A stretch of 64,000 nt of DNA, taken from positions 1-64,000 of the forward strand of contig JAHHIK010000010.1 of assembly GCA_019358935.1 (NCBI GenBank). Reading direction: 5' to 3'. The translations under genes and the position numbers were made by a program. Position 1 is the stretch's first letter. Each line of letters opens with the position of its first letter. The notes below the pieces were generated by a model that ran no database searches, was not told the DNA's origin, and was given only the letters and a program-made list of their open reading frames with translations. This DNA is from Tolypothrix carrinoi HA7290-LM1. Lineage in GTDB: Bacteria; Cyanobacteriota; Cyanobacteriia; Cyanobacteriales; Nostocaceae. Shown here piece after piece: positions 44,054-63,189 of this stretch.

Positions 44054-45316
44054 TTAACCAAACAAACCACCGAAAAACTCAAGGGTATCCTTCAACGCTT
44101 TGATAAAAACATCAATTTCTTCGCGGGTGTTGTAGAAAGATAAACTTGCTCTTGCGGTTCCAGGAAGACCTAAAAAACGGTGTAATGGTTGAGTGCAGTG
44201 GTGTCCAGAACGGATTGCGACACCTTCTTGATCTAATAATGTAGATAAGTCGTTAGCGTGGACTTCTCCGGATGTGAATGCAGCCAAAGCAGCTCTACCT
44301 TCACCATTAGCATCGGGTTTGGGACCATAAATTCTAATTTCGGGAATTTGCAGCAATTGCTCAAACAAATAAGCAGTTAATTCTGCTTCGTAAGCGTGGA
44401 TTTTATCCATGCCAATATTAGTAAGATAATCTATCGCAGCACCAAGAGCGATCGCTTCCCCAATTGCCGGTGTACCAGCTTCAAATTTATGCGGTAATTC
44501 TGCGTAGGTCGAATGGTCTAAAAACACCTCCGCAATCATTTCACCACCACCAAAAAACGGCGGCATCGATTCCAACAATTTCAACTTGCCATACAAAAAG
44601 CCTATCCCAGTTGGGGCACACATTTTGTGACCGGAAGCAACTAACCAATCACAGTCAATTTGCTGCACGTCAACAGGCATATGAGGGACACTTTGGCAAG
44701 CATCAATTAATACTTTTGCACCGTATTCATGCGCTAAAGCACAAATTTCTTGCACCGGGTTAATGCAACCCAAAGTGTTAGAAACATGCACCGTTGACAC
44801 CAATTTAGTTTTTTCAGAAAGCAGAGTTTTGAACTGTTCTAAATCAAAAGTTTCTTCAGATGTCAGTTCGACAAACTTCAGCACTGCACCCGTCTTTTGC
44901 GCCACCAATTGCCAGGGTACAATATTACTGTGGTGTTCCATCACCGAGAGAATAATTTCATCTCCCGGTTGCAAATTGCTCATTCCCCAACTGTAAGCTA
45001 CCAAATTAATCGCCTCAGAAGCGTTGCGGGTGTAAACAATTTCTTGACGAGATGCAGCATTGATAAATTTAGCAACTTTATCTCGTGTAGCTTCATAAGC
45101 ATCAGTAGCTTTCGCGCTGAGAGTATGCGCTCCGCGATGCACGTTAGCATTATACTGCTCGTAATAATCTCGCAAACGATTAAGTACCAGCAAAGGTTTT
45201 TGCGAGGTAGCAGCATTATCCAGGTAAATTAAAGGTTTGCCGTTGACTTCCTGATTTAATATTGGGAAATCAGCGCGAACTTGATCGGCGAGGGTTTTTG
45301 TTTGGGTGAAAGTCAT
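44054..45316 (-). CDS. sufS: Cysteine desulfurase SufS
   Basis: [31 protein letters not shown]. Confidence 0.96.
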
Positions 45317-45335
45317 AAAATTTTGGCTTAAGGAT

Positions 45336-45535
45336 TGTTAGTTGTTGGTTGTTAGTTGTTGGTTGCTGGTTGTTGGTTGTTAGTTGTTGGTTGCTGGTTG
45401 TTAGTTGTTGGTTGTTGATTGTTGGTTGTTTATTCTTTGCTACTATCCACGCTCCCACTATCAACTAACTACTAACCACTATCAACGCTCCCACTATCAA
45501 CGCTCCCACTAACCACTATCCACTAACCAACACCC
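45336..45535. repeat. STRR heptamer arrays (GTTGTTG/GTTGTTA)n and (CCACTAT/CCACTAA)n
   Basis: Tandem heptamers in the sufD-sufS spacer. Confidence 0.9.
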
Positions 45536-45538
45536 AAT

Positions 45539-46930
45539 CTAAAATCTGCTAACTGTTTGCGTGAGAGTTTCGCGAAGAGAGGAAATCGGTATTTGGTTGA
45601 TAATTTCAGCCGCGAAAGCATTAATTAATAAGTTGCGAGCATCGTTGGCATCAATACCCCGGCTTTGCAGATAAAATATTTCATCATCTTCCAACTGGCT
45701 AACAGTCGCACCGTGAGCGCATTTAACATTATCCGCCGTAATTTCCAACTGCGGCTTAGTATCAACTCTGGCTTTAGATGATAGTAGCAGGTTGCGATTT
45801 AATTGCGCCGCATCAGTTAACTGTGCCGGCTTCGGGACAAAAACTTTGCCATTGAACACTCCATGAGCGCGATCGCCTACAATACACTTATGCAATTGCC
45901 GACTAACACCATGCGGATGATTAAGAGCAATTACACTGTGAGTATCCGCCAATTGCTTCCCCTTAATCATCGTCAACCCATTTAAAGTAGTTTCCGTTTG
46001 CTCACCAGTTTGGAAAATCTCTAAATTGTGACGCGAAAACCTGCCACCCAAACTTACCGCATTACAACAATACCGACTATAACGACCTTGCATCACCGCA
46101 GTCTTGCCAACATGAAAAGCCTCAGCACCATCACACTCAACCCGAGTATGACTAACCTGAGCATTCTCCTCAACCCAAATCTCCGTCACCGCATTGGTGA
46201 AGTATACACCCTCTTTCTCCTCCTCTGCGTTCTCTGCGCCTCTGTGAGTCCAGCCCCCGTCTTGGCGGTTTCCGTCACGATGGGGGACTGGCGAACCCGA
46301 AGGGCGGTTCGTATACTCCTCCACCAAACTCACCTGCGAACCACATTCAGCCACCACCAGACAACGCGGTAAAGCAATCCTCCCCTCACCCACAGCAACA
46401 AACACCAAAAAAATCGGTGTTTCCACCACCACATTCTTCCCCACCCATACCACCGCCGCATCAGTCATACCAGCAGTATTCAGAGCAGTAAACACCTCGC
46501 GATCGCCTGACGCTTGTGCCAAATATTGCCGCACCCGTTCATCATAACCCCCAGGTAAATTAGCCAAATTGCTAACCACCACCCCATCAGGTAAACCAGA
46601 AACAGCAGATAACTCAGGTGCATAAACACCATTCACAAAAACCAAACAGTTCTTATTCGCTTCCGGTAAACTAAAAGGCGTAATATTTGGTAAAAACGTC
46701 TCTACATTAAATTGCACCTCGCGCAAAGACGACAAATCAGCAAAACGCCATTCTTCATCGCGGGTAGTAGGAAGTCTTGATTGACGCACCCAATCAGCAG
46801 CACGTTGACGCACATCTTGCAACCAACCCTCTGACTTTGATGCAGCTACTTTATCTAACAACCCAGTTAAATAAGCATCTTTATCCACCAAAGTGTTAGA
46901 AATCGGACTTGGAGAAACTTCAATAGACAT
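45539..46930 (-). CDS. sufD: Fe-S cluster assembly protein SufD
   Basis: EEWRF, QLHKCI, FNGK, DTKPQLEI-ADNVKCAHGAT; position in the suf operon. Confidence 0.95.
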   Translation of the reverse strand: MSIEVSPSPISNTLVDKDAYLTGLLDKVAASKSEGWLQDVRQRAADWVRQSRLPTTRDEEWRFADLSSLREVQFNVETFLPNITPFSLPEANKNCLVFVNGVYAPELSAVSGLPDGVVVSNLANLPGGYDERVRQYLAQASGDREVFTALNTAGMTDAAVVWVGKNVVVETPIFLVFVAVGEGRIALPRCLVVAECGSQVSLVEEYTNRPSGSPVPHRDGNRQDGGWTHRGAENAEEEKEGVYFTNAVTEIWVEENAQVSHTRVECDGAEAFHVGKTAVMQGRYSRYCCNAVSLGGRFSRHNLEIFQTGEQTETTLNGLTMIKGKQLADTHSVIALNHPHGVSRQLHKCIVGDRAHGVFNGKVFVPKPAQLTDAAQLNRNLLLSSKARVDTKPQLEITADNVKCAHGATVSQLEDDEIFYLQSRGIDANDARNLLINAFAAEIINQIPISSLRETLTQTVSRF

Positions 46931-47712
46931 TACACACCCACCTCAGCTTCTTCCAACACCCAGTCATAACCGCGAGCTTCCAACTCCAGCGCCAAATCCT
47001 TACCACCACACATGAGAATCTGCCCCTGAGCCATCACATGCACGTAATCCGGCACAATATAATTAAGTAACCGCTGATAGTGAGTAATCATAATCGTCGC
47101 ATTTTCCGGATTTGCCAGCTGATTTACTCCATTCGCGACAATCTTCAACGCATCAATATCCAAACCAGAATCTGTCTCATCCAGAATCGCCAACTTTGGT
47201 TCTAACAGTGCCATTTGCAGAATCTCATTCCGCTTTTTCTCCCCACCAGAAAAACCCTCATTCAAACTTCTGTTAAGGAAAGCCGGATTCATCTTCACAA
47301 CATCCAGCTTTTCCTCTATCAAATCATCAAAATCAAACGCATCAATTTCTTCTAAACCCTGCGCTTTCCGGCGAGAATTATAAGCCACCCGCAAGAAATC
47401 CAAATTACTCACACCCGGAATTTCCAACGGATATTGAAACGCCAAAAATACACCACTTCTTGCGCGTTCTTCCGGTTCCATTTCCAGCAGATTTTGCCCC
47501 ATAAAGGTGCAACTACCACCAGTTACCTCATAAGCTGGGTGTCCAGCCAAAACCTTAGAAAAAGTACTTTTACCAGAACCATTCGGTCCCATAATCGCAT
47601 GAACTTCACCCGATTTTACCTCAATATTCACACCCTTGAGAATCGGCGTCCCATTAACATTAGCCGTCAAATCTCTTACTGACAGCACAACTTCACTATT
47701 TTCAATAATCAT
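46930..47712 (-). CDS. sufC: Fe-S cluster assembly ATPase SufC
   Basis: [33 protein letters not shown]. Confidence 0.97.
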
Positions 47713-47743
47713 CTTTTCTCTCTCTTATTTCTTCTCTCGCTCC

Positions 47744-47851
47744 CTCGTTCCCAGTCTCAGACTGGGAATGTTATCTTTGGGCTGCTGCCTAGCGATAAAA
47801 TATGAGGCAGCAGCCCACAGAATGCGTTACCAGGTTGAACCTGGTAACGAG
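47744..47851. mobile_element. Short double-hairpin dispersed repeat
   Basis: CTCGTTCCCAGTCTCAGACTGGGAA ... GTTACCAGGTTGAACCTGGTAACGAG, with CTCGTT/AACGAG ends. Confidence 0.7.
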
Positions 47852-47853
47852 AG

Positions 47854-49293
47854 TTAACCAACACTACCTTCCAACTTCAGACTCAACAGCTTATCAGCTT
47901 CCACCGCAAATTCCATCGGCAGCTGATTAAACACATCCTTACAGAAGCCACTAATCATCATCGAAACCGCGTCTTCACTAGAAATGCCCCGCTGTGCAAA
48001 GTAAAATAATTGGTCTTCCCCAATCTTGGAAGTAGAAGCTTCATGCTCCACCTTCGCTGCCTTATTTTGCACCTGAATATATGGGAAAGTATTCGCATGA
48101 GCATTATCCCCAATTAGCATCGAGTCGCACTGCGAATAGTTTCTAGCTCCTTCAGCCTTCGGGTTAATTTTCACCAAACCGCGATAGCTGTTACTAGAAT
48201 TACCAGCAGAAATTCCCTTAGAGATAATCGTGCTGCGAGTGTTCTTACCAACGTGAATCATCTTGGTTCCCGTGTCGGCTTGCTGCATATTATTTGTCAG
48301 CGCTACCGAGTAGAACTCACCCACAGAATTATCGCCCACCAACACGCAGCTAGGATATTTCCAAGTAATCGCAGAACCGGTTTCTACTTGCGTCCAGGAA
48401 ATCTTGGAATTTACACCCTGACACAAACCGCGTTTGGTGACAAAGTTGTAAATACCACCTTTGCCTTTTTCATCGCCGGCGTACCAATTCTGTACTGTAG
48501 AATATTTAATTTCCGCGTTGTCCAGAGCGACAAGTTCCACCACAGCGGCGTGTAGTTGGTTGCTATCGTACATCGGCGCGGTACAGCCTTCCAAGTAGGA
48601 AACATAGCTGCCTTCTTCGGCAACAATCAAGGTACGCTCAAATTGTCCGGTATCGCCGCTGTTAATCCGGAAATAGGTAGACAATTCCATCGGGCATTTT
48701 ACGCCTTTAGGAATATAGACAAAAGAACCATCGCTAAATACAGCCGCATTCAATGCCGCGAAGTAGTTATCGGCAGGGGGGACAACGCTACCCAGATACT
48801 TTTGTACTAGTTCGGGATATTCTTGCAATGCTTCGGAAATCGAGCAGAAGATAACGCCGTCTTTGAGCAGCTTTTCTTTAAATGTAGTGGCGACAGAAAC
48901 ACTATCGAAAATGGCATCTACAGCGACATTTCCCAGTCGCTTTTGTTCTGATAGGGGAATACCTAACTTTTCAAAGGTTTCCAAGAGGGTGGGATCTACT
49001 TCATCCAAACTGTTAAGCTTTTTCTTCGCTTGTTTCGGTGCGGAATAGTAGATGATATCCTGATAATTAATTGGCGGATATTGAACGCTATGCCAAGTCG
49101 GTTCTGTCATTTTTAGCCACTGGCGATAGGCTCTGAGGCGAAACTCCAGCATGAATTCCGGCTCGTTCTTCTTGCTGGAGATCAAGCGGATAACATCTTC
49201 GTTTAGCCCACGCGGAATGGTGTCTGCCTCAATATTGGTGACAAAGCCATATTTGTAGGGCTGGTTGACTAAGGTTTTGACAGTGGCACTCAT
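47854..49293 (-). CDS. sufB: Fe-S cluster assembly protein SufB
   Basis: [38 protein letters not shown]. Confidence 0.97.
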
Positions 49294-49421
49294 CAGTTCT
49301 TTTCTCTCGTGTTCTCTTTTAGGTGTCTCTTTTTGGATGGGAGACGGGCGGTAAGCCGATTTCCCTTCATCGTTAACCCACAGTGGTTACGCGGCTGTTA
49401 CAATAAGGATGGAGAGTAAAA

Positions 49422-49480
49422 CAACAAGTTAGTTGTTTAAGTTATCTCCATTTTACGCTACATTAACAACAAGAATGTTG
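49422..49480. promoter_or_regulatory. Two SufR-binding sites CAAC-N6-GTTG
   Basis: CAACAAGTTAGTTG (49422-49435) and CAACAAGAATGTTG (49467-49480) in the sufB/sufR divergent region. Confidence 0.8.
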
Positions 49481-49517
49481 TCAAAGTGAAATTTCCTAAT
49501 TATTTTTCAGGACTAAG

Positions 49518-50192
49518 ATGGCGACTACCCAGCAGTCCTCAACCAAGCAAGAGATTCTAGAATATCTCCTGAAACACTCACGGGCAACAGCTTTTGAGCT
49601 AGCCGAGATTTTAAATATTAGCCCGCAAGCGATTCGTCGCCATCTCAAAGATTTGGAGGCTGAAAAGCTAATTTTGTATTCATCGATACAAGAAGGGATG
49701 GGGCGTCCGCAGCACGTTTATCATTTGAGTCGTGAAGGACGCGATCGCCTGCAACGAGGTGATAGTTATGGGGAATTTGCTGTTTCTCTGCTGGATACAT
49801 TAGCAGAAACGGTAGGACGCGACCAAGTAAGCACGATTTTAAGAAAGCAGTGGGAACGTAAGGCTCAAGAATATCGCGATCGCTTGGGTAAAGGGTCGTT
49901 AGAAGAACGTGTGGCAAACTTAGTTGAGTTGAGAAAAGCTGAAGGCTTCATGGCAGAGTGTCACCCAGTAGAATCGAATGAATCAGTAGGCGATCGCTTT
50001 ATATTAATGGAGCATAACTGCGCCATTTCCAACGTTGCCGAGTCTTTCCCCAGCATTTGCGGTCATGAATTAGAAATGTTTGCCGCCGTTCTCCCAGATT
50101 GTACAGTAGAGCGGACTCATTGGATTATCAACGGCGAACACCGTTGCGGCTATTTGGTACAAGCGCGAAAACCTTGCGCCGAATTAGATTAA
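49518..50192 (+). CDS. sufR: Fe-S cluster biosynthesis regulator SufR
   Basis: HTH with GRP, EHNCAI, CGHE and HRCGY Cys ligands; divergent from sufB. Confidence 0.95.
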   Translation: MATTQQSSTKQEILEYLLKHSRATAFELAEILNISPQAIRRHLKDLEAEKLILYSSIQEGMGRPQHVYHLSREGRDRLQRGDSYGEFAVSLLDTLAETVGRDQVSTILRKQWERKAQEYRDRLGKGSLEERVANLVELRKAEGFMAECHPVESNESVGDRFILMEHNCAISNVAESFPSICGHELEMFAAVLPDCTVERTHWIINGEHRCGYLVQARKPCAELD

Positions 50193-53183: not shown

Positions 53184-53510
53184 CTATCAACAGAGCGATC
53201 GCTGCATGTACTGGTAAGATAACCGAACTTTTATCAGCCAGACTTGCAGCTATATCATATTGAAAACTAAACTGTTGGCTACTTATGCTACCTGCGGCTT
53301 TTCTAATATCCAGGTTCTCGACTGCAATACATAACAGCCAAAATCAGAATGTAGTCCTGCTTAATTGTGTAGAGAATTGCATAGGTCAACTTCACAACTA
53401 TAACATTTGCGAAGCCATAGTATAACTATAATTATACCATGATGTTATCACTTATAATCAAAGCATTCAAATCTGTTTCGATCGCCAGTTGCCGATTTTC
53501 TTCGAGTTCT
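53184..53510. repeat. Internally deleted direct-repeat copy of 61233-62347
   Basis: 53184-53255 = 61233-61304; 53286-53383 ~ 61356-61453; 53414-53510 ~ 62251-62347. Confidence 0.92.
53288..53383 (-). pseudogene. 3' fragment of RelE/ParE toxin gene with nonsense change
   Basis: Reads YAILYTIKQDYILILAVMYCSREPGY*KSRR*; TGG to TAG relative to 61358-61648. Confidence 0.85.
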
Positions 53511-53546
53511 AATGAAGCAGAGAAAATAGCCGCTTGATCGACGGGG

Positions 53547-56500
53547 TTAATTAGATTTGGGAGCGATCGCAATACCTTGGCAAAGATTGCGATCGGCTGG
53601 TTTCACCTTGGGGTTATTCCTGAGATAATCATCTGCCCAATTGCAACCGCGTTTGAGCAAATAATCAAGGTCAAAATCCCAAACGGAAACACCTTCTTGT
53701 CCAGCAGCAGCGATACTTTTACCATCTGGGCTAAAACTAACATTATCACTGCCCAATCGCTCGTAAGTTGCCAGTAAAGAACCTTCGATATTAAAAAGTT
53801 TAATCTTCTTTAAACCTGCTGCTGCGATTATCTTGCCATCGGGACTAAAACTTACACTCGATACAGGTTCTTCAACGTTAAATGTGTTCAAGCTTTTGTT
53901 ATCTTGGCTATCTAAACTCCAAAGCTTAACCCCACTATCTTTACTGGCAGATGCGATGAGTTTACCATCGGGACTGAAACTTACACCTGTAACTCCATTT
54001 CCATGCTCTTTAAATTCTTTAATTACTTTGCCAGTTGCAGGTTGCCAAACTTTAACTGTTTTGTCGTCGCTGCCAGATGCGACTAAAGTACCATTATGAT
54101 TAAAGCTAACGCTGTTTACATTTTGTTTATGCTCTCTGAAATTTGTCATTATTTGACCATCGCGCTGCCAAATTTTCACGGTATTATCATAGCTTGCTGA
54201 AGCTATCTTACTGCCATCTGGACTAACACTGACGCTGGAAATAATATTATTATGTCCTGGAAAAGTTTGTAATAACTGTACACTATTTTGTGTATTTTTT
54301 CCCGATGCCTGCGAAATCTGCCAGAGTTTGACAACATCATCGTTAGTCACAATAGCAATTTTGTCACTGTTAGGGATTGCCTCGATAGATCCGATAAAAT
54401 TGGTTTTTAAGGTCACTGTTTTTGGCTGTATCAACTTTGCTTTAGCATTTTGATTTATATAGCTATTTATATGCCAAAATTGCACCTCATTCTCGTTGAT
54501 ACGAGTAGCAAAAGTCTTGTTGTCAGCACTAAATATAGTAGGAGAATCTGGTATTGAATTTTTTAAGTCTTCATCGCTAAGATAGTCACCAAAGCGCTCA
54601 AGTTCCTCACTGGGTATAGTTTGGAGAATTTCCAGGAAAGTGCCATCACTTCTCCATAACTCCACAGTCCGCTCATTGGTACGAACCGCTAAAATTTGAG
54701 CATCATCGCTGAGAACTACAGAAGGGTAGGGTGAACTGTCACTTGGAACTATGTTTCTGGTTTTGAGTTGGATGGTAGTGTTCTGCGATCGCTCAATATT
54801 CCAAATAGATATTTTATTACTGCCTGCCCTATAAAAAACCTTTGTTTTTAAATCTTTACTCGATATAGGATTTGCTGGATTTTGGTTTTTACTACTATCT
54901 TGAATTGATGAAATTACAGAACCATCATAATTCAAATATTGTATATAATTATTACTGCTAATCGCTATTTCCTTACTATTAATAATAAAGCTTATATCAA
55001 CTTCGCTACTATTTTCTTTATTATTAGGCAGATTAATTTTTTTAATTAAATTACCATTACTATTCCATAATTCTAATTGAAAGTCTTCAGAATTATAGCT
55101 GTTTGGAAGATACTTTTTGACAATAGCTATATCTCCATCGGGACTAAATTTTACTGATATTCTTCTATCCTGCTTTAGAGTTTTGATAATTTTACCGTTA
55201 ACCTCTACAAATTTAAGAGTGTTATCATTCGACCAAAAAGCTAAAGTTTTACTATCAGCGCTAAAGCCCATACTTTTATCATTTTCATAATTAATCAAGC
55301 CATAGTCATGCAAAGAAGTAATCTGTTTTCCATCTCTCTGCCAAAGTTTGATAGTTTTATCCCGACTGCGGGTTGCAAATTTTTTACCATCAGGGCTAAA
55401 ACTTATCTCCTCAACTCTATCTTTGTGTCCTTTGAGAGTTGTAATCTGCTTACCTTCACTCGAATAAATTTCTACTGTATTATCGCTCTTGCTGAGAGCA
55501 ATCATTTTTCCATTATTACTAAAACTTCCTTGAATAAGACTTCCTTGTAGAGTCTTGATATATTTGCCGTCACTTTGCCAAAGCTGTAGGTTAGTTTCTT
55601 GGCTAGCGGAAACAATGCTTTCGCGATCGGCACTAAAATTTACTTCTAGATTATTTCCTGGTAATTTTGCAAATAAAGAGCCGTTACGCTGCCAGAGTGT
55701 TGCCTCACCATTATACTTATTGATAGCAGCAAGTAATTGACTACTAGGATTAAAACTTATATTTGTTATATAATCATAGTCGTTATATTCAGAAGATTTA
55801 AAACTCTTCTTTTCCAAACTCCAAAGCTTAATGGTTCTGTCCTCGCTAACAGAAGCAAGCATATCTAATGCTGGATTAAAGCTGATATCGGTGACTTTAT
55901 TTCTATGTCCAGTAAGATTAATAGAGTCTATAAATTCTCTATTAGCTGTTTGAGAACTACTAACTATTATACTGTTCTCTATCTGATCGGTATATCTTAT
56001 TCCATAAGAGCTAGTAGCAACCCCGGTTGCAATAATTTTGCTGTCTGGGCTAAACTTGAAATTTATACTTGGTTCCTGATATACATTTTCACCAGTATTA
56101 AATGAAGAACCATCACTACGCCATAACAAACCAAAACTAGAATTAATAGTTTGACCATCGGGACTAAAACTAAGTCTAGGCAAAAAGTTTTCTCTAACCT
56201 CAATATCATCAATCAAAGATTTGATTTCCTTACCTTCCCGATTCCAAAGTTTTGCGGTTTTATCCAAGCTAGCAGAAACAATTGTTTGACCATCGGGACT
56301 AAAGTTGACGCTCGTGACACTAGCATTATGTCCCGTCGGCAAATCTTTAATTACTTTTCCATTTAAATTCCAAAGTATTATACTGCCATCTTTAGCTCCA
56401 GAAAGTATTGTTTGACCGTTAGGACTAAAACTAGCACTCACAATTTCTGTTCGTTTATGTACAAATATAGAAATTGGTTTAGTATTTATTTGATTACTTT

Positions 56501-59500
56501 TGATTGACTTTATATCCCAAAGTTTTAAAGTTTTATCTTCGCTACCAGAGAGAATTTTTTTATTATCTGGACTGAAGATAAGATTAGTAATTTTTTTATC
56601 ATGAGCATTATTAATGGTTGCAATTTCTATTCCATCTTGTTGCCAAACCTTCACCACTCCATCGGCACTTCCAGAGGCTATCATTTTACCATCAGGACTG
56701 TAACTAACTTTGGTGACAGTATCTTTGTGTCCTTCTAAACTATTCCGTTCTCGAATTGTATAAACTACATCTTGTAAAGCGGTCGTCACCTGCATTTTAA
56801 CTTCAGGTGATACCCCAATCGACCACCATTGTTTGATACGTTTGCCTGCTTTTAATGCTTGTACTAATGCCTCTAAATCGTTGTTTGAATTTAAGAACCT
56901 TTGAGATTCATTACTCATCGACATAAGTTGACTATTATTCTGACTTATCAACACTAGTGGTAAGAATATTGCAAATGCTCCAGTAATAACCCCTAAAGAT
57001 ACTTTCCAAACTAAACCTTTTCGCTCATCGATGAGTTGCTGTCTGAGAACTTCATTAAGCTTTGCTTCAGTTAACTTCCTTTGCTCTCGTTCTTTCTCCA
57101 GCTCTTTAATCAATCGCTCCGACTGCTGCTGACGTACAAATGGTACTAAATAATCATGAACTAGCTGATAGCGATCGCTCGGAAATCCTGGTACTTGAAA
57201 TACCAATCCAGATTTGACTAAAATCTTTAAAATTAAGTTTAATCTTTCTGTCTCTAATGCTAATTCTGCTTCGATTTCGGCACGATTTTTCAGGGGACGA
57301 GTATTGTTTTCATCGGTTAAAATATATAACACTAATTTAGCAAACTGCTCGTTATTCTGACCGCAGTCTTTCACAACCTCTTCTAAAAAACGTCCTACTA
57401 ATTCTTCTTTGGGACCATATTCTTGATATTGAGCGAGTGTTGTAATTTTTTCGGTTTGCAGTTGCGCTCCTACTACTTGTAATTCAATCGGACGAACTTC
57501 ATTAAAGTTACTCGCTAAATCTCGCACTAATTCATCAATTAGTTCGACATCGAGATGGAATTGAGAGCTTTCTGTTAAATTATCGATGACAGAACGAGCA
57601 TCTTCTGGAGAAAAATTGCCTAAATAGTAGAGGATTTTTTTGTCTAAAATATTGCAGTCGATCGCATCTAGTTTTACCAAGCGATCGCATTCGAGTAAGT
57701 AATGTAAATAATCTTCTCGCAGCGAGAGAATAATCTTTACATAGGGGATATTTAAACAGTCGCGTATAAATTCAAAAAATGGTTGTCTTTGTACGGGGTC
57801 TTTATAAGCAAAGAAAAATTCTTCAAATTGGTCGAAAATTAAAACTGTTAATGAATTATTATCAATATTTTTCTTGAGTTCTGTTGTAAAAGCTGCCATC
57901 GTATCTAAAAAGTGGGGAAAACTTAAACCCTTGACTTCTTCGATAGATTCGACAAAACGACTACCCAAAGTTTTTGCCCAGTCTGTATAAACTTGCAACA
58001 AAACAGGTACAACGTCCCGTGCTTCAACCGATTTCTGCTTTAAAGCTGGCAATAAACCCGCTTGTACGAGGGAACTTTTACCGACACCAGATTGCCCGTA
58101 AACTACAGTTAATTTGCAATCGGGACGACCAATTCGTTCGATTAATCGATTTACATCTTGCAACCTTCCAGAAGCGGCAATTTCTGGAGACACATTTGCT
58201 TTGCGATCGCTAACTCCTAACCCAAAGTTAGCTACTTGTCGTCTCGATTGTAAGCGTCCAGCACCAACAAAAGCCCGCAATCCATATTGTTGTTCTATCG
58301 ATCGCAATTCTTGTTTAATATCAAATGCTTCTAAGTATTTGCTTTGGTCAAAGTAAAGCTTTTGCAGGGTGGAAAGAATGCGAATGTAAAACAAAGGGTC
58401 TAACTGGGGATTGCTATGAAAACGAGCAGTTTCTAAATGAGAAATAGCTTCGCTTGTTTGCTCAAGATGTTGTTGTGCTTGGGCTAATAATAATAAGTAT
58501 ATATTGCGAAAATTTTTACGTTCCCAATCCAAAATTGTAGTTTGATTTGCTGGGATATTATCTTGATTTGGGACGATGATATCATTATGTTGTAGTGCTA
58601 ATTCCGCATATTCCTTCGCTTGCATCCATTCTGATTTTTGTAAGGCTACTTCTGCCATTAATCCATAACTATAACCGAGCTTTACGGGTTCCGGATGGGC
58701 TTTATGCAAATTAATCGCTTGAGTCGCAACCTTTTCTAGTTCCTCCCACGCTGCTAATTGAGTTAATACTTCTCCCCATAGATTAATATATTTTGCTGCC
58801 AAATTTGGTTGATGATGCTGTTCAAAAATATCTACACATTTTTGAAAATATTCTTTAGCTTGCTCGCAAGCTTGCCGATGTTCGCTACGATGTATATTCG
58901 CATATTGTCGCCACCACAAACCTAGATGCAATAGCACACATCCGTAACGTTTGATATCATCTAGATGGCTATTTTCCCTATCTGTAACTCGCTGCTGCCA
59001 GAAATCTAAACTTTGTTCGTAGTACGCTCGCGCTTCTGATTTCTTATTACTTGCATCTGCTTCTCTACCTAGCAAAAATTGAATACTTGCTGCTAATGGT
59101 GCTAATGGCTGCATTGATTTTTGTAAATCTTTGACAGCCAATTCCATTTCTAAAAAATGATAGGTATCAAAATCAAGATTTAATGAGGCATTATCTAAAA
59201 ATATCCCGGAAACTGCATTGAGAATTGCGGAAAATACTAAGGATATAGTTTCTTCTAACTTAGTAATTAACTCATTAGTTTCGATTTCAAACTTAATGGA
59301 ATTACCTGTCCAATTTTTAAAGTCTGGCATTCGACGAATCAATTTTTGGAAGATTTCATCGTTTACCCATAGCACAATCGGAAATTGAAAATTCTTGCGA
59401 AATTCTTCTCTAACTTGATTTGTGGAAATTAAAACTTGGTCAACAGCCTCAACTAACTCCAAGCCAAATATCATTAAAGCTGAAGGTTGTCTATCTTTCA

Positions 59501-59747
59501 AATCAGCTTGAATTGTTGTAAAAAGGGTTTTGACTGACTTTGACAGGTGCAACTCATGAATTTCCATCGGACACTGTTGCTTCAATCGCTGCACCATTTC
59601 ATCTTGCAAACTGCGGTAGTTACAGCGTGCAATAATCAAGACAAAATTTTCTTGAGAATTGGTAATTGATCGCGCTAATTTTCGCAAAGAGCGTTCGTTA
59701 TCAACTACAATTTTTTCTGGAATTTGTTTGGGTTCTGGGGATATCAT
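53547..59747 (-). CDS. STAND (nSTAND1-like) NTPase with TPR-like region, TM helix and multiple WD40 propellers
   Basis: VYGQSGVGKSS Walker A, LIFDQFEEFF Walker B, SLRED, YQLVHDYL; TM segment LVWKVSLGVITGAFAIFLPLVLI; many GH...FSPDG...LW repeats. Confidence 0.88.
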   Translation of the reverse strand: MISPEPKQIPEKIVVDNERSLRKLARSITNSQENFVLIIARCNYRSLQDEMVQRLKQQCPMEIHELHLSKSVKTLFTTIQADLKDRQPSALMIFGLELVEAVDQVLISTNQVREEFRKNFQFPIVLWVNDEIFQKLIRRMPDFKNWTGNSIKFEIETNELITKLEETISLVFSAILNAVSGIFLDNASLNLDFDTYHFLEMELAVKDLQKSMQPLAPLAASIQFLLGREADASNKKSEARAYYEQSLDFWQQRVTDRENSHLDDIKRYGCVLLHLGLWWRQYANIHRSEHRQACEQAKEYFQKCVDIFEQHHQPNLAAKYINLWGEVLTQLAAWEELEKVATQAINLHKAHPEPVKLGYSYGLMAEVALQKSEWMQAKEYAELALQHNDIIVPNQDNIPANQTTILDWERKNFRNIYLLLLAQAQQHLEQTSEAISHLETARFHSNPQLDPLFYIRILSTLQKLYFDQSKYLEAFDIKQELRSIEQQYGLRAFVGAGRLQSRRQVANFGLGVSDRKANVSPEIAASGRLQDVNRLIERIGRPDCKLTVVYGQSGVGKSSLVQAGLLPALKQKSVEARDVVPVLLQVYTDWAKTLGSRFVESIEEVKGLSFPHFLDTMAAFTTELKKNIDNNSLTVLIFDQFEEFFFAYKDPVQRQPFFEFIRDCLNIPYVKIILSLREDYLHYLLECDRLVKLDAIDCNILDKKILYYLGNFSPEDARSVIDNLTESSQFHLDVELIDELVRDLASNFNEVRPIELQVVGAQLQTEKITTLAQYQEYGPKEELVGRFLEEVVKDCGQNNEQFAKLVLYILTDENNTRPLKNRAEIEAELALETERLNLILKILVKSGLVFQVPGFPSDRYQLVHDYLVPFVRQQQSERLIKELEKEREQRKLTEAKLNEVLRQQLIDERKGLVWKVSLGVITGAFAIFLPLVLISQNNSQLMSMSNESQRFLNSNNDLEALVQALKAGKRIKQWWSIGVSPEVKMQVTTALQDVVYTIRERNSLEGHKDTVTKVSYSPDGKMIASGSADGVVKVWQQDGIEIATINNAHDKKITNLIFSPDNKKILSGSEDKTLKLWDIKSIKSNQINTKPISIFVHKRTEIVSASFSPNGQTILSGAKDGSIILWNLNGKVIKDLPTGHNASVTSVNFSPDGQTIVSASLDKTAKLWNREGKEIKSLIDDIEVRENFLPRLSFSPDGQTINSSFGLLWRSDGSSFNTGENVYQEPSINFKFSPDSKIIATGVATSSYGIRYTDQIENSIIVSSSQTANREFIDSINLTGHRNKVTDISFNPALDMLASVSEDRTIKLWSLEKKSFKSSEYNDYDYITNISFNPSSQLLAAINKYNGEATLWQRNGSLFAKLPGNNLEVNFSADRESIVSASQETNLQLWQSDGKYIKTLQGSLIQGSFSNNGKMIALSKSDNTVEIYSSEGKQITTLKGHKDRVEEISFSPDGKKFATRSRDKTIKLWQRDGKQITSLHDYGLINYENDKSMGFSADSKTLAFWSNDNTLKFVEVNGKIIKTLKQDRRISVKFSPDGDIAIVKKYLPNSYNSEDFQLELWNSNGNLIKKINLPNNKENSSEVDISFIINSKEIAISSNNYIQYLNYDGSVISSIQDSSKNQNPANPISSKDLKTKVFYRAGSNKISIWNIERSQNTTIQLKTRNIVPSDSSPYPSVVLSDDAQILAVRTNERTVELWRSDGTFLEILQTIPSEELERFGDYLSDEDLKNSIPDSPTIFSADNKTFATRINENEVQFWHINSYINQNAKAKLIQPKTVTLKTNFIGSIEAIPNSDKIAIVTNDDVVKLWQISQASGKNTQNSVQLLQTFPGHNNIISSVSVSPDGSKIASASYDNTVKIWQRDGQIMTNFREHKQNVNSVSFNHNGTLVASGSDDKTVKVWQPATGKVIKEFKEHGNGVTGVSFSPDGKLIASASKDSGVKLWSLDSQDNKSLNTFNVEEPVSSVSFSPDGKIIAAAGLKKIKLFNIEGSLLATYERLGSDNVSFSPDGKSIAAAGQEGVSVWDFDLDYLLKRGCNWADDYLRNNPKVKPADRNLCQGIAIAPKSN

Positions 59748-61048
59748 AATTTAAATTTCTTCGACTCTGCGATCGCAGGATTAATATCAAACCAGCGTCC
59801 TTCTAGATCGCGGTATTCAAATAAAAACATACTTCTAAGTAGTGTTTGGTATTCTTCCTCACCTTTTACGTTGTCTTTATTTTGCAAAATTTGATGTAGT
59901 AACGTCCACTCATCTTCACTAATTGCCGATATCAAATCATCTCGGTATTCACGGATAACCATTTCCAAACAATCACGTTGAATTGGTGGGTCATTTTCTT
60001 GCAGGCAACTATAAAGTAATACTAGTAAATTGCGGACATGACCGCCACTAACCCTAATTAAACGGTCTAAAGTGTCAGCCGCATCAAACACATCAGTAAT
60101 GCGATCGCATCGCTCTTTTTCTCCGAGTCGAGGAAAAGCACGCGCTAAAACCATCTGCCGTAACAAATCCATCCCTTGTTGATTATCCCCTCCCTGGCGA
60201 GATTTCACTGTCACCATCGGTAAGACAAGCGGTTTGACTCCAAAGCGATTGGTCAATGTACTTAACTCATTTGAAAAAATTAACACCAAAGGAATTGTGT
60301 ACACCACATGGCAATTAAGTTTCTTTAGCTGCTCTCCTCTATCAATAAAAAGATACTCCGGTTGCGAACGTCCCGTAGTTTTTAGCGAAATATCAACGCG
60401 ATCGAGATTATCGATGATGACAACCAAACCTTTGTATCCTTGTTGCTTCAATTCCTGCTTGGCAGTCTCTAATATCTGTTGGTTGATAGCATCTAAAATA
60501 CCACTGGTGCGTGGTTCTAAATATTGACGTAATTGACTGCGGAGTCTGGGACTATCTTTTGTTTTGGCAGTAACTTTCCCAATACCCATTGGTAGAGAAA
60601 ATTCAAATTCGGGAATTACTGGTGTTTGTAGAAAATCAGCGATTTCATTAAACAAACTCACAAAATAACTTGGCTTCAACCTAATATTAACGCTCTCTAA
60701 ACTGACGCTAACTTGACGGGTAATAGCCAGCAAAATATCGCTGACATCAACATCAGCCATATCTAAATCTGCACTAGACTCAAAATAAACCACATGAAAA
60801 CCTTGCCGTTCTAGTTCGTCTTTGAGTCGGAATAGCTCTGTAGATTTGCCACAACCGATATGTCCCGTAAATAGTTGGCAGGTTGAAGAGTCAACTTGAT
60901 GGGCGATCGTTCGTCGCAACCTTTGGACTACATTTCCTCCACGTACCGATGAAAAGTCAATATAATATTGTTGGTCTTCTCTATTCTCAATCTTTAAAGT
61001 TTTACTAGGATTGCAAGCATTAAAAAATTTTATTGGGTCTAATGTCAT
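59744..61048 (-). CDS. P-loop ATPase (AAA+/KAP-like)
   Basis: FTGHIGCGKSTEL Walker A, VIIDNLDR Walker B, SGGHVR; ATGA overlap with the next gene. Confidence 0.88.
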   Translation of the reverse strand: MTLDPIKFFNACNPSKTLKIENREDQQYYIDFSSVRGGNVVQRLRRTIAHQVDSSTCQLFTGHIGCGKSTELFRLKDELERQGFHVVYFESSADLDMADVDVSDILLAITRQVSVSLESVNIRLKPSYFVSLFNEIADFLQTPVIPEFEFSLPMGIGKVTAKTKDSPRLRSQLRQYLEPRTSGILDAINQQILETAKQELKQQGYKGLVVIIDNLDRVDISLKTTGRSQPEYLFIDRGEQLKKLNCHVVYTIPLVLIFSNELSTLTNRFGVKPLVLPMVTVKSRQGGDNQQGMDLLRQMVLARAFPRLGEKERCDRITDVFDAADTLDRLIRVSGGHVRNLLVLLYSCLQENDPPIQRDCLEMVIREYRDDLISAISEDEWTLLHQILQNKDNVKGEEEYQTLLRSMFLFEYRDLEGRWFDINPAIAESKKFKL

Positions 61049-61061
61049 AGAAATCTCTTGA

Positions 61062-61232
61062 TATAGGATTACTATTTGATTTTTGAAAAGATACGTAGGG
61101 AAGGCAAAAAGGGGTGTGGATGTTCCTCCCCCTTTATTGCCGTTGTGTTAGCTTAGAGAGTACGGCACCATTTTCAAGGGTTTGGTGCGTTAGACGGAAC
61201 GTCTAACGCACCCTACAATACTTAAATTTTTT
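61062..61232. mobile_element. REP/MITE-like remnant
   Basis: TATAGGATTACTATTTGATTTTTGAA end and GGTGCGTTAGACG/CGTCTAACGCACC-CTAC hairpin. Confidence 0.55.
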
Positions 61233-61357
61233 CTATCAACAGAGCGATCGCTGCATGTACTGGTAAGATAACCGAACTTTTATCAGCCAGACTTGCAGCT
61301 ATATTATATTAGAAACGAAGCAGGCAAACGTAATATTAAGCTGGTAGCGACTTTGTG

Positions 61358-61648
61358 CTACCTGCGGCTTTTCCAATATCCAGGTTCTCGACTGCAATAC
61401 ATAACAGCCAAAATCAAAATATAGTCCTGCTCAATTGTATAAAGAATTCCATAAGGAAACTTTTGAGTCAAACATCTGCGAACGTCCTCATCAAGCACAG
61501 CCCAACGAGTCGGAGACTCTTTTATTCGATAAACTGCATCCTCAACAGCATCAATAAAAGCTTGCGCTACCTCAGCACGTTGCTTTGCATAATACTGCAC
61601 AGCTTCAGTATATTCAGTGAGTGCCTCAGGGTGAAATACATACTTCAT
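61358..61648 (-). CDS. Type II TA RelE/ParE family toxin
   Basis: FHPEA-E-A-YY, RRCL-KFPY-I-Y, ILAV-SREPGYW. Confidence 0.9.
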   Translation of the reverse strand: MKYVFHPEALTEYTEAVQYYAKQRAEVAQAFIDAVEDAVYRIKESPTRWAVLDEDVRRCLTQKFPYGILYTIEQDYILILAVMYCSREPGYWKSRR

Positions 61649-61875
61649 TGCCCAAGTAGTCGCCTCACTTGAGCCAAAGCTTGTTCTCCTGGAATCGGTT
61701 GGACATCTTTACTGCGAACCTCATCCCGTCGTTTCTGTGCCTCATCAATCCAAGCTGCTTGAATTGTTGGGTCTGTATCAAATTCCAAGCTTTCCACTAT
61801 CTTTTCTGCCAAGAGCGCCCTCGACGCACTAGGCAAAGATAGGATTTCTTCTGTCAGTTGCTCAATTGACCGCAT
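61645..61875 (-). CDS. Addiction-module antitoxin (TIGR02574-like)
   Basis: LP-SRA-LA-ESL, AW-EA-RR, IPGE; ATGA overlap with the toxin. Confidence 0.88.
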   Translation of the reverse strand: MRSIEQLTEEILSLPSASRALLAEKIVESLEFDTDPTIQAAWIDEAQKRRDEVRSKDVQPIPGEQALAQVRRLLGQ

Positions 61876-61902
61876 AGCTACCCGCAGAATGTTGAATTCT
61901 GC

Positions 61903-61968
61903 TCACAGTGTAACAACAATTGCAACTAGTCTTGGCATATCTGCCCACCAAATTTCACCTTGCTGCAT
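61903..61968 (-). pseudogene. Truncated PemK/MazF-like toxin remnant
   Basis: MQQGEIWWADMP start overlaps the antitoxin stop (TAATG); the frame closes after 21 codons. Confidence 0.7.
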
Positions 61969-62255
61969 TACCAGGTTTCCTTTAGCAATGTGTGGGTTTG
62001 TAGTTCAACCAAAAATGGGTTAAGACTACTATCCTCATCAGCGTACACAGCATCTAACTGCTCTGTAATGCGTAGGCGTAGTCCGCCGTTCGCGGAGCGT
62101 CTCCGACAGGAGAAGGCATCGCTACGATGAGCTTTTAAGTATTCTTGGAGCGCTACAGCATACAGTTCGCTTCGAGATAGCCCCATTCGTTTTGCAAAGT
62201 TTTCCGCAGCTTCAAAAATAGTATCTGGGATTGAAATAGCTGTTTTCATCGCCAT
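61968..62255 (-). CDS. Ribbon-helix-helix antitoxin (ChpI/MazE-like) with 45-nt in-frame insert
   Basis: MKTAISIPD-IF-A-A-G-SRSELY RHH motif; ITEQLD-VY; C-terminal W. Confidence 0.8.
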   Translation of the reverse strand: MAMKTAISIPDTIFEAAENFAKRMGLSRSELYAVALQEYLKAHRSDAFSCRRRSANGGLRLRITEQLDAVYADEDSSLNPFLVELQTHTLLKETW

Positions 62256-62256
62256 A

Positions 62257-62274
62257 GTATAACTATAGTTATAC
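62257..62274. promoter_or_regulatory. Palindromic operator of the RHH antitoxin
   Basis: Perfect 18-bp palindrome GTATAACTATAGTTATAC immediately before the start codon. Confidence 0.65.
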
Positions 62275-62421
62275 CATGATGTTATCACTTATAATCAAAG
62301 GACTCAAATCTGTTTCGATCGCCAGTTGCCGATTTTCTTCGAGTTCTTCTGTGAATCATTGCAGCGATGTTTGACGACAAGATGGGAAACGTCTATGCAT
62401 CCTGTTTATTTGCCCGAAGTA

Positions 62422-63189
62422 TCAGAAATGAGCGACGTATCCACCATCAACCGCCAAAACCTGACCAGTGACGTACGATGCAGCTGGAGAAGCAAAGAAA
62501 ACAACAGCACCCGCAATTTCTTTTGGATCTCCCCAACGACCTAGAGAAGTTCGCTTAGAAAGCCAAGCAGCAACTTCTTTATCAGCAACCACGTCCATAT
62601 TACTCTCAGTTGCAAAAAAGCCCGGAGCAACAGCATTAACGGTTATTCCAAATTTTCCCAGTTCCGCAGCAAGAGTGCGAGTTAGTGATTCAAGTCCTCC
62701 CTTCGCCGTAGTATAAACAGCATCACCAGCATCGGCGATGGAACCTGCAATTGATGTTATGTTGATGATTCTACCCTCACCATTCTCGATCATCAACCGT
62801 GCTGCTTCCCGCGATAGATTGAAGGGAGCGATGAGATCGACATCGATCAGCCGACGCACTGCATCTAGTTCAAATTCAAAAAAATTACGGCGATCGCGCA
62901 TACCAACATTATTTACGAGGATATCGAGATGCCCGTGTTTTTGTTTGATTTCGCTGAACGCTTTTTGAATGGCTGTCTCCGAAGTAATATCTAACTGCAA
63001 TAGTGAGGCTGATCCGCCCATTGAGTGGATAGTTGCAACTGCACGATTGAGGCTTTCATGATTGCGCCCATTTACGAGAACAAAAGCACCAGCCTGAGCA
63101 AGTGCCTTGGCAATTTCCAGTCCTAGCCCTCGTCCCCCTCCAGTAACTAAGGCAGTTTTGCCATCCAATGAAAACTCAGATAGTGTCAC
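62422..63189 (-). CDS. Short-chain dehydrogenase (gluconate 5-dehydrogenase-like)
   Basis: TGGGRGLG, NNVG, YTTAK, NAVAPG. Confidence 0.92.
   Translation of the reverse strand: MTLSEFSLDGKTALVTGGGRGLGLEIAKALAQAGAFVLVNGRNHESLNRAVATIHSMGGSASLLQLDITSETAIQKAFSEIKQKHGHLDILVNNVGMRDRRNFFEFELDAVRRLIDVDLIAPFNLSREAARLMIENGEGRIINITSIAGSIADAGDAVYTTAKGGLESLTRTLAAELGKFGITVNAVAPGFFATESNMDVVADKEVAAWLSKRTSLGRWGDPKEIAGAVVFFASPAASYVTGQVLAVDGGYVAHF

Follow-up and report, generated by a model that had tools for sequence, protein, structure and literature searches.

A stretch of 64,000 nucleotides from the filamentous cyanobacterium Tolypothrix carrinoi HA7290-LM1 (contig JAHHIK010000010.1, positions 1 to 64,000; here called the window) carries on its minus strand a two-gene cassette made up of an AAA+ ATPase (61048-59744, 434 aa) and a membrane receptor (59747-53547, 2066 aa). 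We give an even chance to the interpretation that this is a mobile cassette in which the receptor turns a WD40 sensor outward and holds the ATPase on a degenerate ("dead") AAA+ domain, the ATPase being the output of a response to non-self, that is, to biological conflict. For this copy we lean towards a conflict role, and the proposition that the ATPase is the output is about evenly balanced. The coordinates of both open reading frames (ORFs) were checked, and the genes overlap through ATGA, which confirms the coupled pair put forward in an initial reading of the sequence (the original prediction). Below, contigs of the host genome (G000) have C-numbers and comparison loci L-numbers.

The ORF and domain scan divides the receptor into successive regions. 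Residues 13-165 (59253-59711), the predicted docking site of the ATPase, form a five-stranded alpha/beta AAA+ fold in a model with a predicted local distance difference test (pLDDT) score of 90.3. The fold matches are all AAA+ or STAND proteins, with the best scores for TnsC (Z 10.9) and Sir3 (Z 10.2). The region has neither a Walker A motif nor the Walker B aspartate, in line with the degenerate N-terminal ATPase originally predicted, and an alignment of 83 homologs shows little or no variation at N110, R113 and D142. No Pfam family reaches its cut-off over residues 13-165, a PDB sequence search with the domain gave 0 matches, and the matches in the ESM Atlas are cyanobacterial clusters only; 1930 clusters at 50% identity carry the domain. 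Because a profile-profile comparison shows no similarity between the two (probability 0.4%), the possibility that the dead domain is a recent copy of its partner ATPase was rejected.

The TPR-like helices expected behind the dead domain (residues 166-490, 58278-59252) are present as TPR matches at 160-490, all of them under the Pfam cut-offs (best E 1.5e-6). They are followed by an nSTAND1 NTPase (residues 527-868, 57144-58169; E 8.9e-33, 114.9 bits against a cut-off of 27.1), in which the Walker A lysine K557 and the Walker B aspartate D639 are in place, so that the STAND NTPase is intact as claimed. It belongs to a divergent subclade: its score is 119 bits, where eight further copies in this genome reach 246-447. 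A coiled coil at about residues 880-905 was read from the sequence by eye. The sole strong hydrophobic helix follows at residues 916-934 (56946-57002; Kyte-Doolittle 2.45, runner-up 1.68), with basic residues on its N-terminal side, and matches the one transmembrane (TM) helix of the original prediction. The WD40 array (residues 1003-2026, 53670-56741) has about 20 or more blades: a local profile found 20 blade-like matches, strong at both ends and weak or missing at about 1180-1820, in agreement with the proposed array of about 1000 aa with degenerate middle blades. In the core paralogs described below, about 14 blades is the commonest count. A C-terminal cap (53550-53669) contains C2035 and C2056. 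As had been noted from the sequence, no nuclease, TIR or caspase domain appears among the listed matches (best 25 of 64 families for the whole receptor).

The partner ATPase is, by its motifs and fold, Orc1/Cdc6/TnsC-like with a C-terminal winged-helix-like domain. It has a Walker A motif at G62-S69, a Walker B motif ending in D213, an arginine at the finger position (R268) and a sensor-2-like R339; the finger and sensor-2 roles are our assignments from general knowledge of AAA+ proteins. The AlphaFold model has a pLDDT of 90.1 and its best Foldseek matches are Cdc6/Orc1, while a wide fold search returned TnsC (Z 15.4, root-mean-square deviation (rmsd) 3.9, 279 aligned) and Cdc6 (Z 14.7, rmsd 3.4, 243 aligned). 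A PDB sequence search with the ATPase profile gave nothing informative (best E 0.007, P-loop only). Clustered at 90% identity, the ATPase homologs form at least 3821 groups. KAP is a frequent automatic name for the homologs. KAP NTPases typically have TM helices in an insert; membership in that family was rejected, as PF07693 scores 16.6 bits (E 0.005) against a cut-off of 20 and no ATPase helix is above 1.4 hydropathy.

ATPase and dead domain travel together. In 69 of 80 loci a dead domain follows the ATPase at a distance of no more than 2.5 kb, and among the 11 loci with no dead domain nearby 8 end within 1 kb and one more has a dead domain 3.6 kb away. Of 121 genomes from across the phylum, 33 have the ATPase, and the 31 with a dead domain all belong to these 33; 89 of 99 dead-domain matches (frames of at least 300 aa) lie <3 kb downstream of an ATPase. 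Every genome sampled from the host's family carries the pair's family (15/15). A simpler form, in which the ATPase is paired with a dead-domain-TPR protein that has no nSTAND1, occurs twice in the host genome (C52 and C45) and in other cyanobacteria; an Acidobacterium plasmid also carries such a TPR-only pair, its dead-domain match being weak (E 2e-4). In four genomes of one genus (G035, G083, G089 and G135; L136 and L137) the single ATPase and the single full receptor of each genome are unlinked, so the pair can work in trans.

Structure prediction of the ATPase together with the dead domain, the check proposed for the coupling, gave an ipSAE of 0.79 against 0.00 for the best control, and the mark used for such complexes is reached by 116 of 157 solved pairs and by 2 of 215 mismatched pairs. 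The runs share at least 92% of their contacts, with a partner pLDDT of at least 77. On the ATPase the predicted interface takes in the edge of Walker A (64-65), the loop after Walker B (214-221) and the sensor-2/lid region (339-375); on the dead domain it takes in residues 104-117 and 141-152. The dead domain is therefore predicted to sit on the nucleotide face of the ATPase, at the usual seat of a neighbouring AAA+ subunit, and with this model in hand we regard binding of the ATPase to the dead domain as very likely. The original proposal that the receptor signals through its partner stands as far as physical coupling through the N-terminal domain is concerned, by the predicted complex and the gene linkage, whereas the direction from receptor to ATPase is inferred.

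Two further arrangements of these genes were seen. Stand-alone dead-AAA+ genes of about 165-200 aa gave 17 matches in the 121 genomes, 16 of them unlinked to an ATPase (examples are G000:C21:32045-32539 (L085) and L130-L135); those examined have no finger arginine, and the proteins could be free inhibitors of family ATPases. In P0317, an Aulosira record, the first 200 ATPase residues are fused in frame to a receptor without a dead domain, which is a deletion or an assembly artefact.

The two kinds of pair place the arginine finger reciprocally. We assigned R268 (box VII) of the ATPase and residue 147 of the dead domain as finger positions from general AAA+ topology and scored 120 of 134 pairs, omitting truncated or short partners and second ATPase copies. 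In receptor-type pairs the finger arginine is on the ATPase in 90 of 92 and on the dead domain in 0 of 92 (T147 here). In TPR-only pairs it is on the ATPase in 1 of 28 (5 if an arginine within two columns is counted), and the dead domain has arginine or lysine in 28 of 28. One change on the ATPase tree (support 99) splits the two kinds. We infer from this sequence pattern a probable change from an activating ancestral partner to a capping dead domain in the receptor type, because the latter has no finger arginine while the ATPase has its own. Together with the predicted binding, the reciprocal placement suggests a cap like that of BrxB on BrxC, holding the ATPase until the receptor oligomerises. 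The invariant R113 lies within the predicted interface and is present in both kinds of pair.

The membrane-spanning topology originally proposed is supported across 128 full-length homologs. A hydrophobic helix of at least 1.6 lies between nSTAND1 and WD40 in 105 of them (at least 1.9 in 66), lysine and arginine are more numerous before the helix than after it in 92 of the 105 and the reverse never occurs, and 122 of the 128 have a terminal cysteine pair. In the window receptor C2035 and C2056 are the only cysteines after the TM helix, compared with ten before it, and they likely form a disulfide. From these patterns we consider it likely that the WD40 array faces outward. Other domains fill the WD40 slot in 14 selected proteins out of 150 homologs: CHASE2 in 3, TPR in 2, NACHT in 2, nothing recognised in 2, and a kinase, Roc-COR, dynamin, ARC6-IMS and phosphoenolpyruvate (PEP) carboxylase domain in 1 each. 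CHASE2 and ARC6-IMS are extracytoplasmic domains. The receptor core is therefore constant and its C-terminal half a plug-in, which in this copy is likely periplasmic, the WD40 array being the predicted sensor. In P0026 the receptor core is fused to a whole PEP carboxylase domain that replaces the TM helix and WD40.

The plug-in half changes fast and has been exchanged. Five Nostoc copies share 96-100% identity in the ATPase and 96-99% in nSTAND1, but 49-80% in the WD40 blocks; the ratio of nonsynonymous to synonymous substitution rates (dN/dS) is 0.03-0.06 for the ATPase and 0.2-0.7 for WD40. The relatives nearest to the window receptor by their core share 94-95% of nSTAND1 and 91-97% of the ATPase but only 35% of the coiled-coil/TM linker, whereas seven clade-B receptors share 67-78% of the linker, 51-56% of the ATPase and 62-65% of nSTAND1. 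The switch in identity falls within the conserved helix at about residues 880-905 (57033-57110). In a tree of residues 700-880 the window receptor groups with L164 (support 100/99), and in a tree of residues 908-1010 it lies inside clade B (95/98); L009, L031 and L124, in which the anchor motif was not found, are omitted from these trees. Judged by identities and trees, the receptor is a recombinant, with its cytoplasmic core from one clade (A) and its TM helix and WD40 array from another (B), and the diversifying propeller of the original prediction corresponds to a region that is both fast-changing and exchanged in this copy. Recent DNA-level amplification of repeats was considered for the array and rejected: the copies are 60-83% alike and there are no near-identical blades. 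In the closest relative (L001:11302-15983) a deletion removes part of nSTAND1 and the TM helix of the receptor, and the WD40 remnant is of a different type.

Two core paralogs of the host genome are syntenic across the genus. For the C81 paralog, six same-genus orthologs are 98-100% identical in the ATPase and 89-97% in WD40; for the C66 paralog the values are 93-98% and 74-88%. Directly downstream of the C81 paralog are genes of 711 aa and 1330 aa (G000:C81:17298-23380; L081:1-3381), which we take, by motif, to resemble CHAT-TIR-AAA_35 and AAA_35 proteins. It is possible that they form a trans effector.

The cassette in the window was absent from 10 of 10 same-genus genomes, and in six same-genus genomes both of its flanks lie on one contig without it. 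In the host's family, 13 of 300 genomes match it at E 1e-200 or better, and its closest named relatives are Calothrix and Nostoc records. Its G+C content is 36.8% against 42.3% for the genome, and a small toxin-antitoxin (TA) array flanks it, as a remnant on one side and in full on the other. A contig from run X3 also has the cassette at this site, differing from the window over 53534-61063 by 237 letters and 27 gaps, and contigs from run X2 have the order TPR gene, ParE module, cassette end; the cassette is thus common to close strains. ATPase homologs occur on ten plasmids, with one pair between integrases and TA genes, and phage collections gave no match. Taken together, distribution and site mark the cassette as accessory and apparently mobile. 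For this copy we found neither a WD40 region that is conserved and syntenic among relatives nor a failure of the two proteins to associate in the prediction, the findings that would have spoken for a housekeeping module.

Fusions of the ATPase family bear on its role. At least 14 of 47 longer ATPase homologs are fused behind a vWA/SAV_2336 domain (17 of the 47 were scanned), and others are fused to HipA or TIR. A basic helical insert, K158-R180 (K158, K164, R170, R174), is kept in both kinds of pair, at what is presumably the position where TnsC and Orc1/Cdc6 contact DNA. The slot adjacent to vWA/SAV_2336 is, in the accessible part of the source, the variable effector position of MoxR-vWA systems (Kaur 2020, PMC7159879). 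From the vWA, HipA and TIR fusions and the conserved insert we favour, at modest odds, the ATPase as output, likely as a DNA-binding oligomer. DNA is suggested as the target because the closest folds, TnsC and Orc1/Cdc6, act on DNA; by this analogy DNA is a possible target, though a rather doubtful one. When 151 class-level genomes were searched for fusions of vWA to the ATPase, ordinary ATPases were all that came up. A three-gene MoxR-vWA locus on a plasmid of Nostoc sp. C057 (L144:5048-10221) encodes a vWA protein whose C-terminus is a distant ATPase homolog (E 1e-38).

In the mechanism that we propose, the receptor would span the cytoplasmic membrane once, with its exchangeable WD40 sensor in the periplasm, and the dead domain would cap single ATPase subunits and park them at the membrane. 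An outside ligand would cause nSTAND1 to oligomerise, and the ATPases would thereby be clustered or released. The freed subunits could then assemble through R268 into an active oligomer, which would probably act on DNA and lead to arrest or death of the challenged cell of the filament.

Several observations weigh against this interpretation. The dN/dS of the WD40 region is never >1 region-wide, so relaxed selection is possible. The two conserved, syntenic paralogs in the same genome fit a core role for the family. The controls of the complex prediction were unrelated proteins rather than other AAA+ domains, so the score may reflect the interface that AAA+ proteins generally form; with interfaces of this kind frequent in solved structures, the result supports binding without proving it. 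The finger swap is one evolutionary event and not repeated evidence, as it corresponds to a single change on the tree. R113 may act catalytically in trans, in which case the dead domain would activate the ATPase instead of capping it. A dead-domain gene was sought beside the vWA-fused ATPase in L144 and none was nearby. STAND NTPases also occupy the vWA effector position, as likely switches according to the accessible part of the source (Kaur 2020, PMC7159879), so this position is no proof of toxicity. PADLOC 2.0.0, one of the checks put forward for a defence role, fits no system: the receptor matches WD40 repeats only and the ATPase only weakly (E 9e-5 or worse). When 94 of 108 listed neighbour proteins from 16 loci were scanned, 13 matched PADLOC at 1e-10, most of them generic (kinase, TnpB-like, ABC, cyclase and protease domains), and L007, with DUF2290 and a helicase fragment, was the only defence-like neighbourhood among the 16. 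The neighbourhoods are mostly housekeeping.

These neighbourhoods, which are mostly not defence islands, speak for the strongest alternative: a non-immune envelope or developmental switch that responds to cell contact, the septum or wall status, of which this copy would be an accessory paralog with its sensor swapped for another envelope cue or for kin recognition. The presence of the family in 15/15 sampled genomes and the synteny and conservation of the C81 and C66 paralogs favour it as well, and so do the two genes adjoining the C81 copy, which we take to be ftsQ and ftsZ. Standing against it are the absence of this copy from 10/10 same-genus genomes, its TA-rich variable site and its swapped, fast-diverging sensor, together with the vWA, HipA and TIR fusions of the ATPase family. 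We judge this alternative unlikely, although it deserves to be taken seriously.

A second alternative reverses the roles: the ATPase would regulate the receptor by braking, loading or resetting it, and the output would come from effectors encoded at other loci or from receptor oligomers at the membrane. No toxic domain is found among the listed matches of either protein, and in TPR-only pairs the partner supplies the arginine, so that either protein could be upstream. The CHAT-TIR-AAA_35-like gene, recognised at motif level, follows the C81 paralog, and on a plasmid a TIR-fused ATPase lies between the two genes. However, in TPR-only pairs the ATPase is the only possible enzyme, the closest loci share no constantly linked effector gene, and the dead domain and TPR region fill the position in which nSTAND1-type proteins carry effectors or adaptors, namely N-terminally (PMC8195603). 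We consider a purely regulatory ATPase improbable. It is very improbable that the cassette is a drifting, dispensable paralog whose WD40 centre is decaying and senses nothing: the WD40 dN/dS below 1 and the deletion and frame breaks in the L001 receptor would fit, but the frame of 2066 codons is intact, the ATPase dN/dS is 0.03-0.06 among the Nostoc copies, the X3 contig keeps the same cassette at the same site and seven clade-B receptors retain the same type of TM linker at 67-78% identity.

We found no description of this ATPase/receptor pair in the literature searched, which did not take in subscription papers or the source data of two eLife papers, where the operon could be listed. The nearest mechanistic parallel to the proposed conflict cassette is BrxC-BrxB of type I BREX. 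In the accessible parts of the sources, an active ORC/Cdc6-clade ATPase is bound at its ATP pocket by an inactive AAA+ protein (iSTAND), a docking that is predicted here (PMC13326643, PMC12839542), and R182 of BrxB completes the ATP pocket of BrxC and blocks another BrxC (PMC13326643). As described there, the BREX ATPase has 1200-1300 aa and BrxB gives the arginine, whereas here the ATPase has 434 aa, and the dead domain, as part of a membrane receptor, has no finger arginine. BrxC is a distant fold match of the ATPase (Z 9.9, rank 39); BrxB is not among the listed fold matches of the dead domain, which has no iSTAND Pfam match either, and no PglX, PglZ, BrxA or BrxL was found in the window flanks or among the 94 neighbours scanned at 1e-10. 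At the interface, the pair is predicted to work like BrxC-BrxB.

The predicted nSTAND1 conflict systems (PF20703; PMC8195603) likewise have a central nSTAND1, over the cut-off here, and a C-terminal sensor that varies, and they too occur in multicellular cyanobacteria. In the examples given there, the N-terminus is an effector-associated domain (EAD) or an enzyme effector and the sensor an FGS lectin, whereas the receptor described here has a dead AAA+ domain plus TPR, a separate ATPase and a sensor beyond a TM helix; no EAD or effector family was found in receptor residues 1-490 at E up to 1, the only matches being weak ones to TPR. The nSTAND2 two-gene system (PF20702; PMC8195603) shares a two-gene operon with an active and an inactive NTPase, predicted in the accessible part of the source to form a hetero-oligomer. 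There a GT4 or HEPN effector is on the inactive NTPase, and here there is none and the finger arginine is not on both proteins. Membership in nSTAND2 was rejected: PF20702 has no match at the locus (E up to 1) and matches only C6 and C111 in the host genome. The C6 match (G000:C6:125677-131108) covers two adjacent frames of 955 and 1546 aa, both above the nSTAND2 cut-off, which make up a candidate nSTAND2 operon.

Avs/AVAST and other anti-phage STAND receptors share the STAND switch and repeat sensor, and cyanobacterial STANDs with WD40 sensors (Apaf-1-like) are noted in the accessible part of PMC13581612. There the receptors sense intracellular proteins and have a fused N-terminal effector, and that part describes no partner ATPase or outward-facing sensor; a search of its supplement, as far as accessible, for nSTAND1, WD40 and Nostoc found nothing. 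TnsC and Orc1/Cdc6, the best folds for the ATPase, differ in context: here there is no TnsB/TniQ or replication context and the dead-AAA+ partner is constant. As for MoxR-vWA ternary systems, MoxR and vWA genes are absent at this locus; the vWA fusions concern relatives of the ATPase only.

The TA array beside the cassette marks a variable insertion site and lies outside the two-gene unit. On the right it occupies 61233-62347 on the minus strand, with a ParE toxin (61358-61648), a small upstream partner ORF, a ribbon-helix-helix (RHH)-like ORF (61968-62288) and a truncated toxin start. The left-hand remnant at 53184-53510, to which no strand is assigned, repeats parts of it (53184-53392 matches 61233-61462, and 53414-53510 matches 62251-62347). 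Upstream of the ATPase, 61062-61233 is a 170-bp non-coding stretch with copies (83-89%) at unrelated sites of other genomes and many partial copies in the host genome; it is probably a dispersed palindromic repeat. The gene at 62422-63189, presumably short-chain dehydrogenase-like, is also missing at the same site in the same-genus genomes compared and is a second insertion at this hot spot. The genes at 44054-50192 look like an ordinary SUF operon for iron-sulfur clusters together with its regulator.

The family is large and appears unstudied. More speculatively, it may be a family of surface pattern-recognition receptors of filamentous cyanobacteria, NLR-type switches whose periplasmic WD40 halves are swapped at one conserved helix and whose output is an uncapped TnsC/Orc-like ATPase polymer, neither nuclease nor pore. 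It would have arisen from a cross-phylum switch of ATPase and dead-AAA+-TPR protein, with the finger moving from sensor to ATPase and the activator turning into a cap; we hold this wider view only tentatively and think it improbable as a whole. The predicted interface and the finger swap offer tests at the level of single residues (K68, R268, R113 and T147). The bacterial receptors resembling NOD-like receptors (NLRs) described in the accessible parts of the sources sense inside the cell and carry their own effector (PMC8195603, PMC13581612). If our interpretation is true, the cassette would show a bacterial surface sensor triggering its response by a route not described before, and a transmembrane NLR-like receptor with a swappable outer sensor and a separate AAA+ output would widen both the range of what can be detected, such as envelope breach, predators or non-kin filaments, and the range of signalling.

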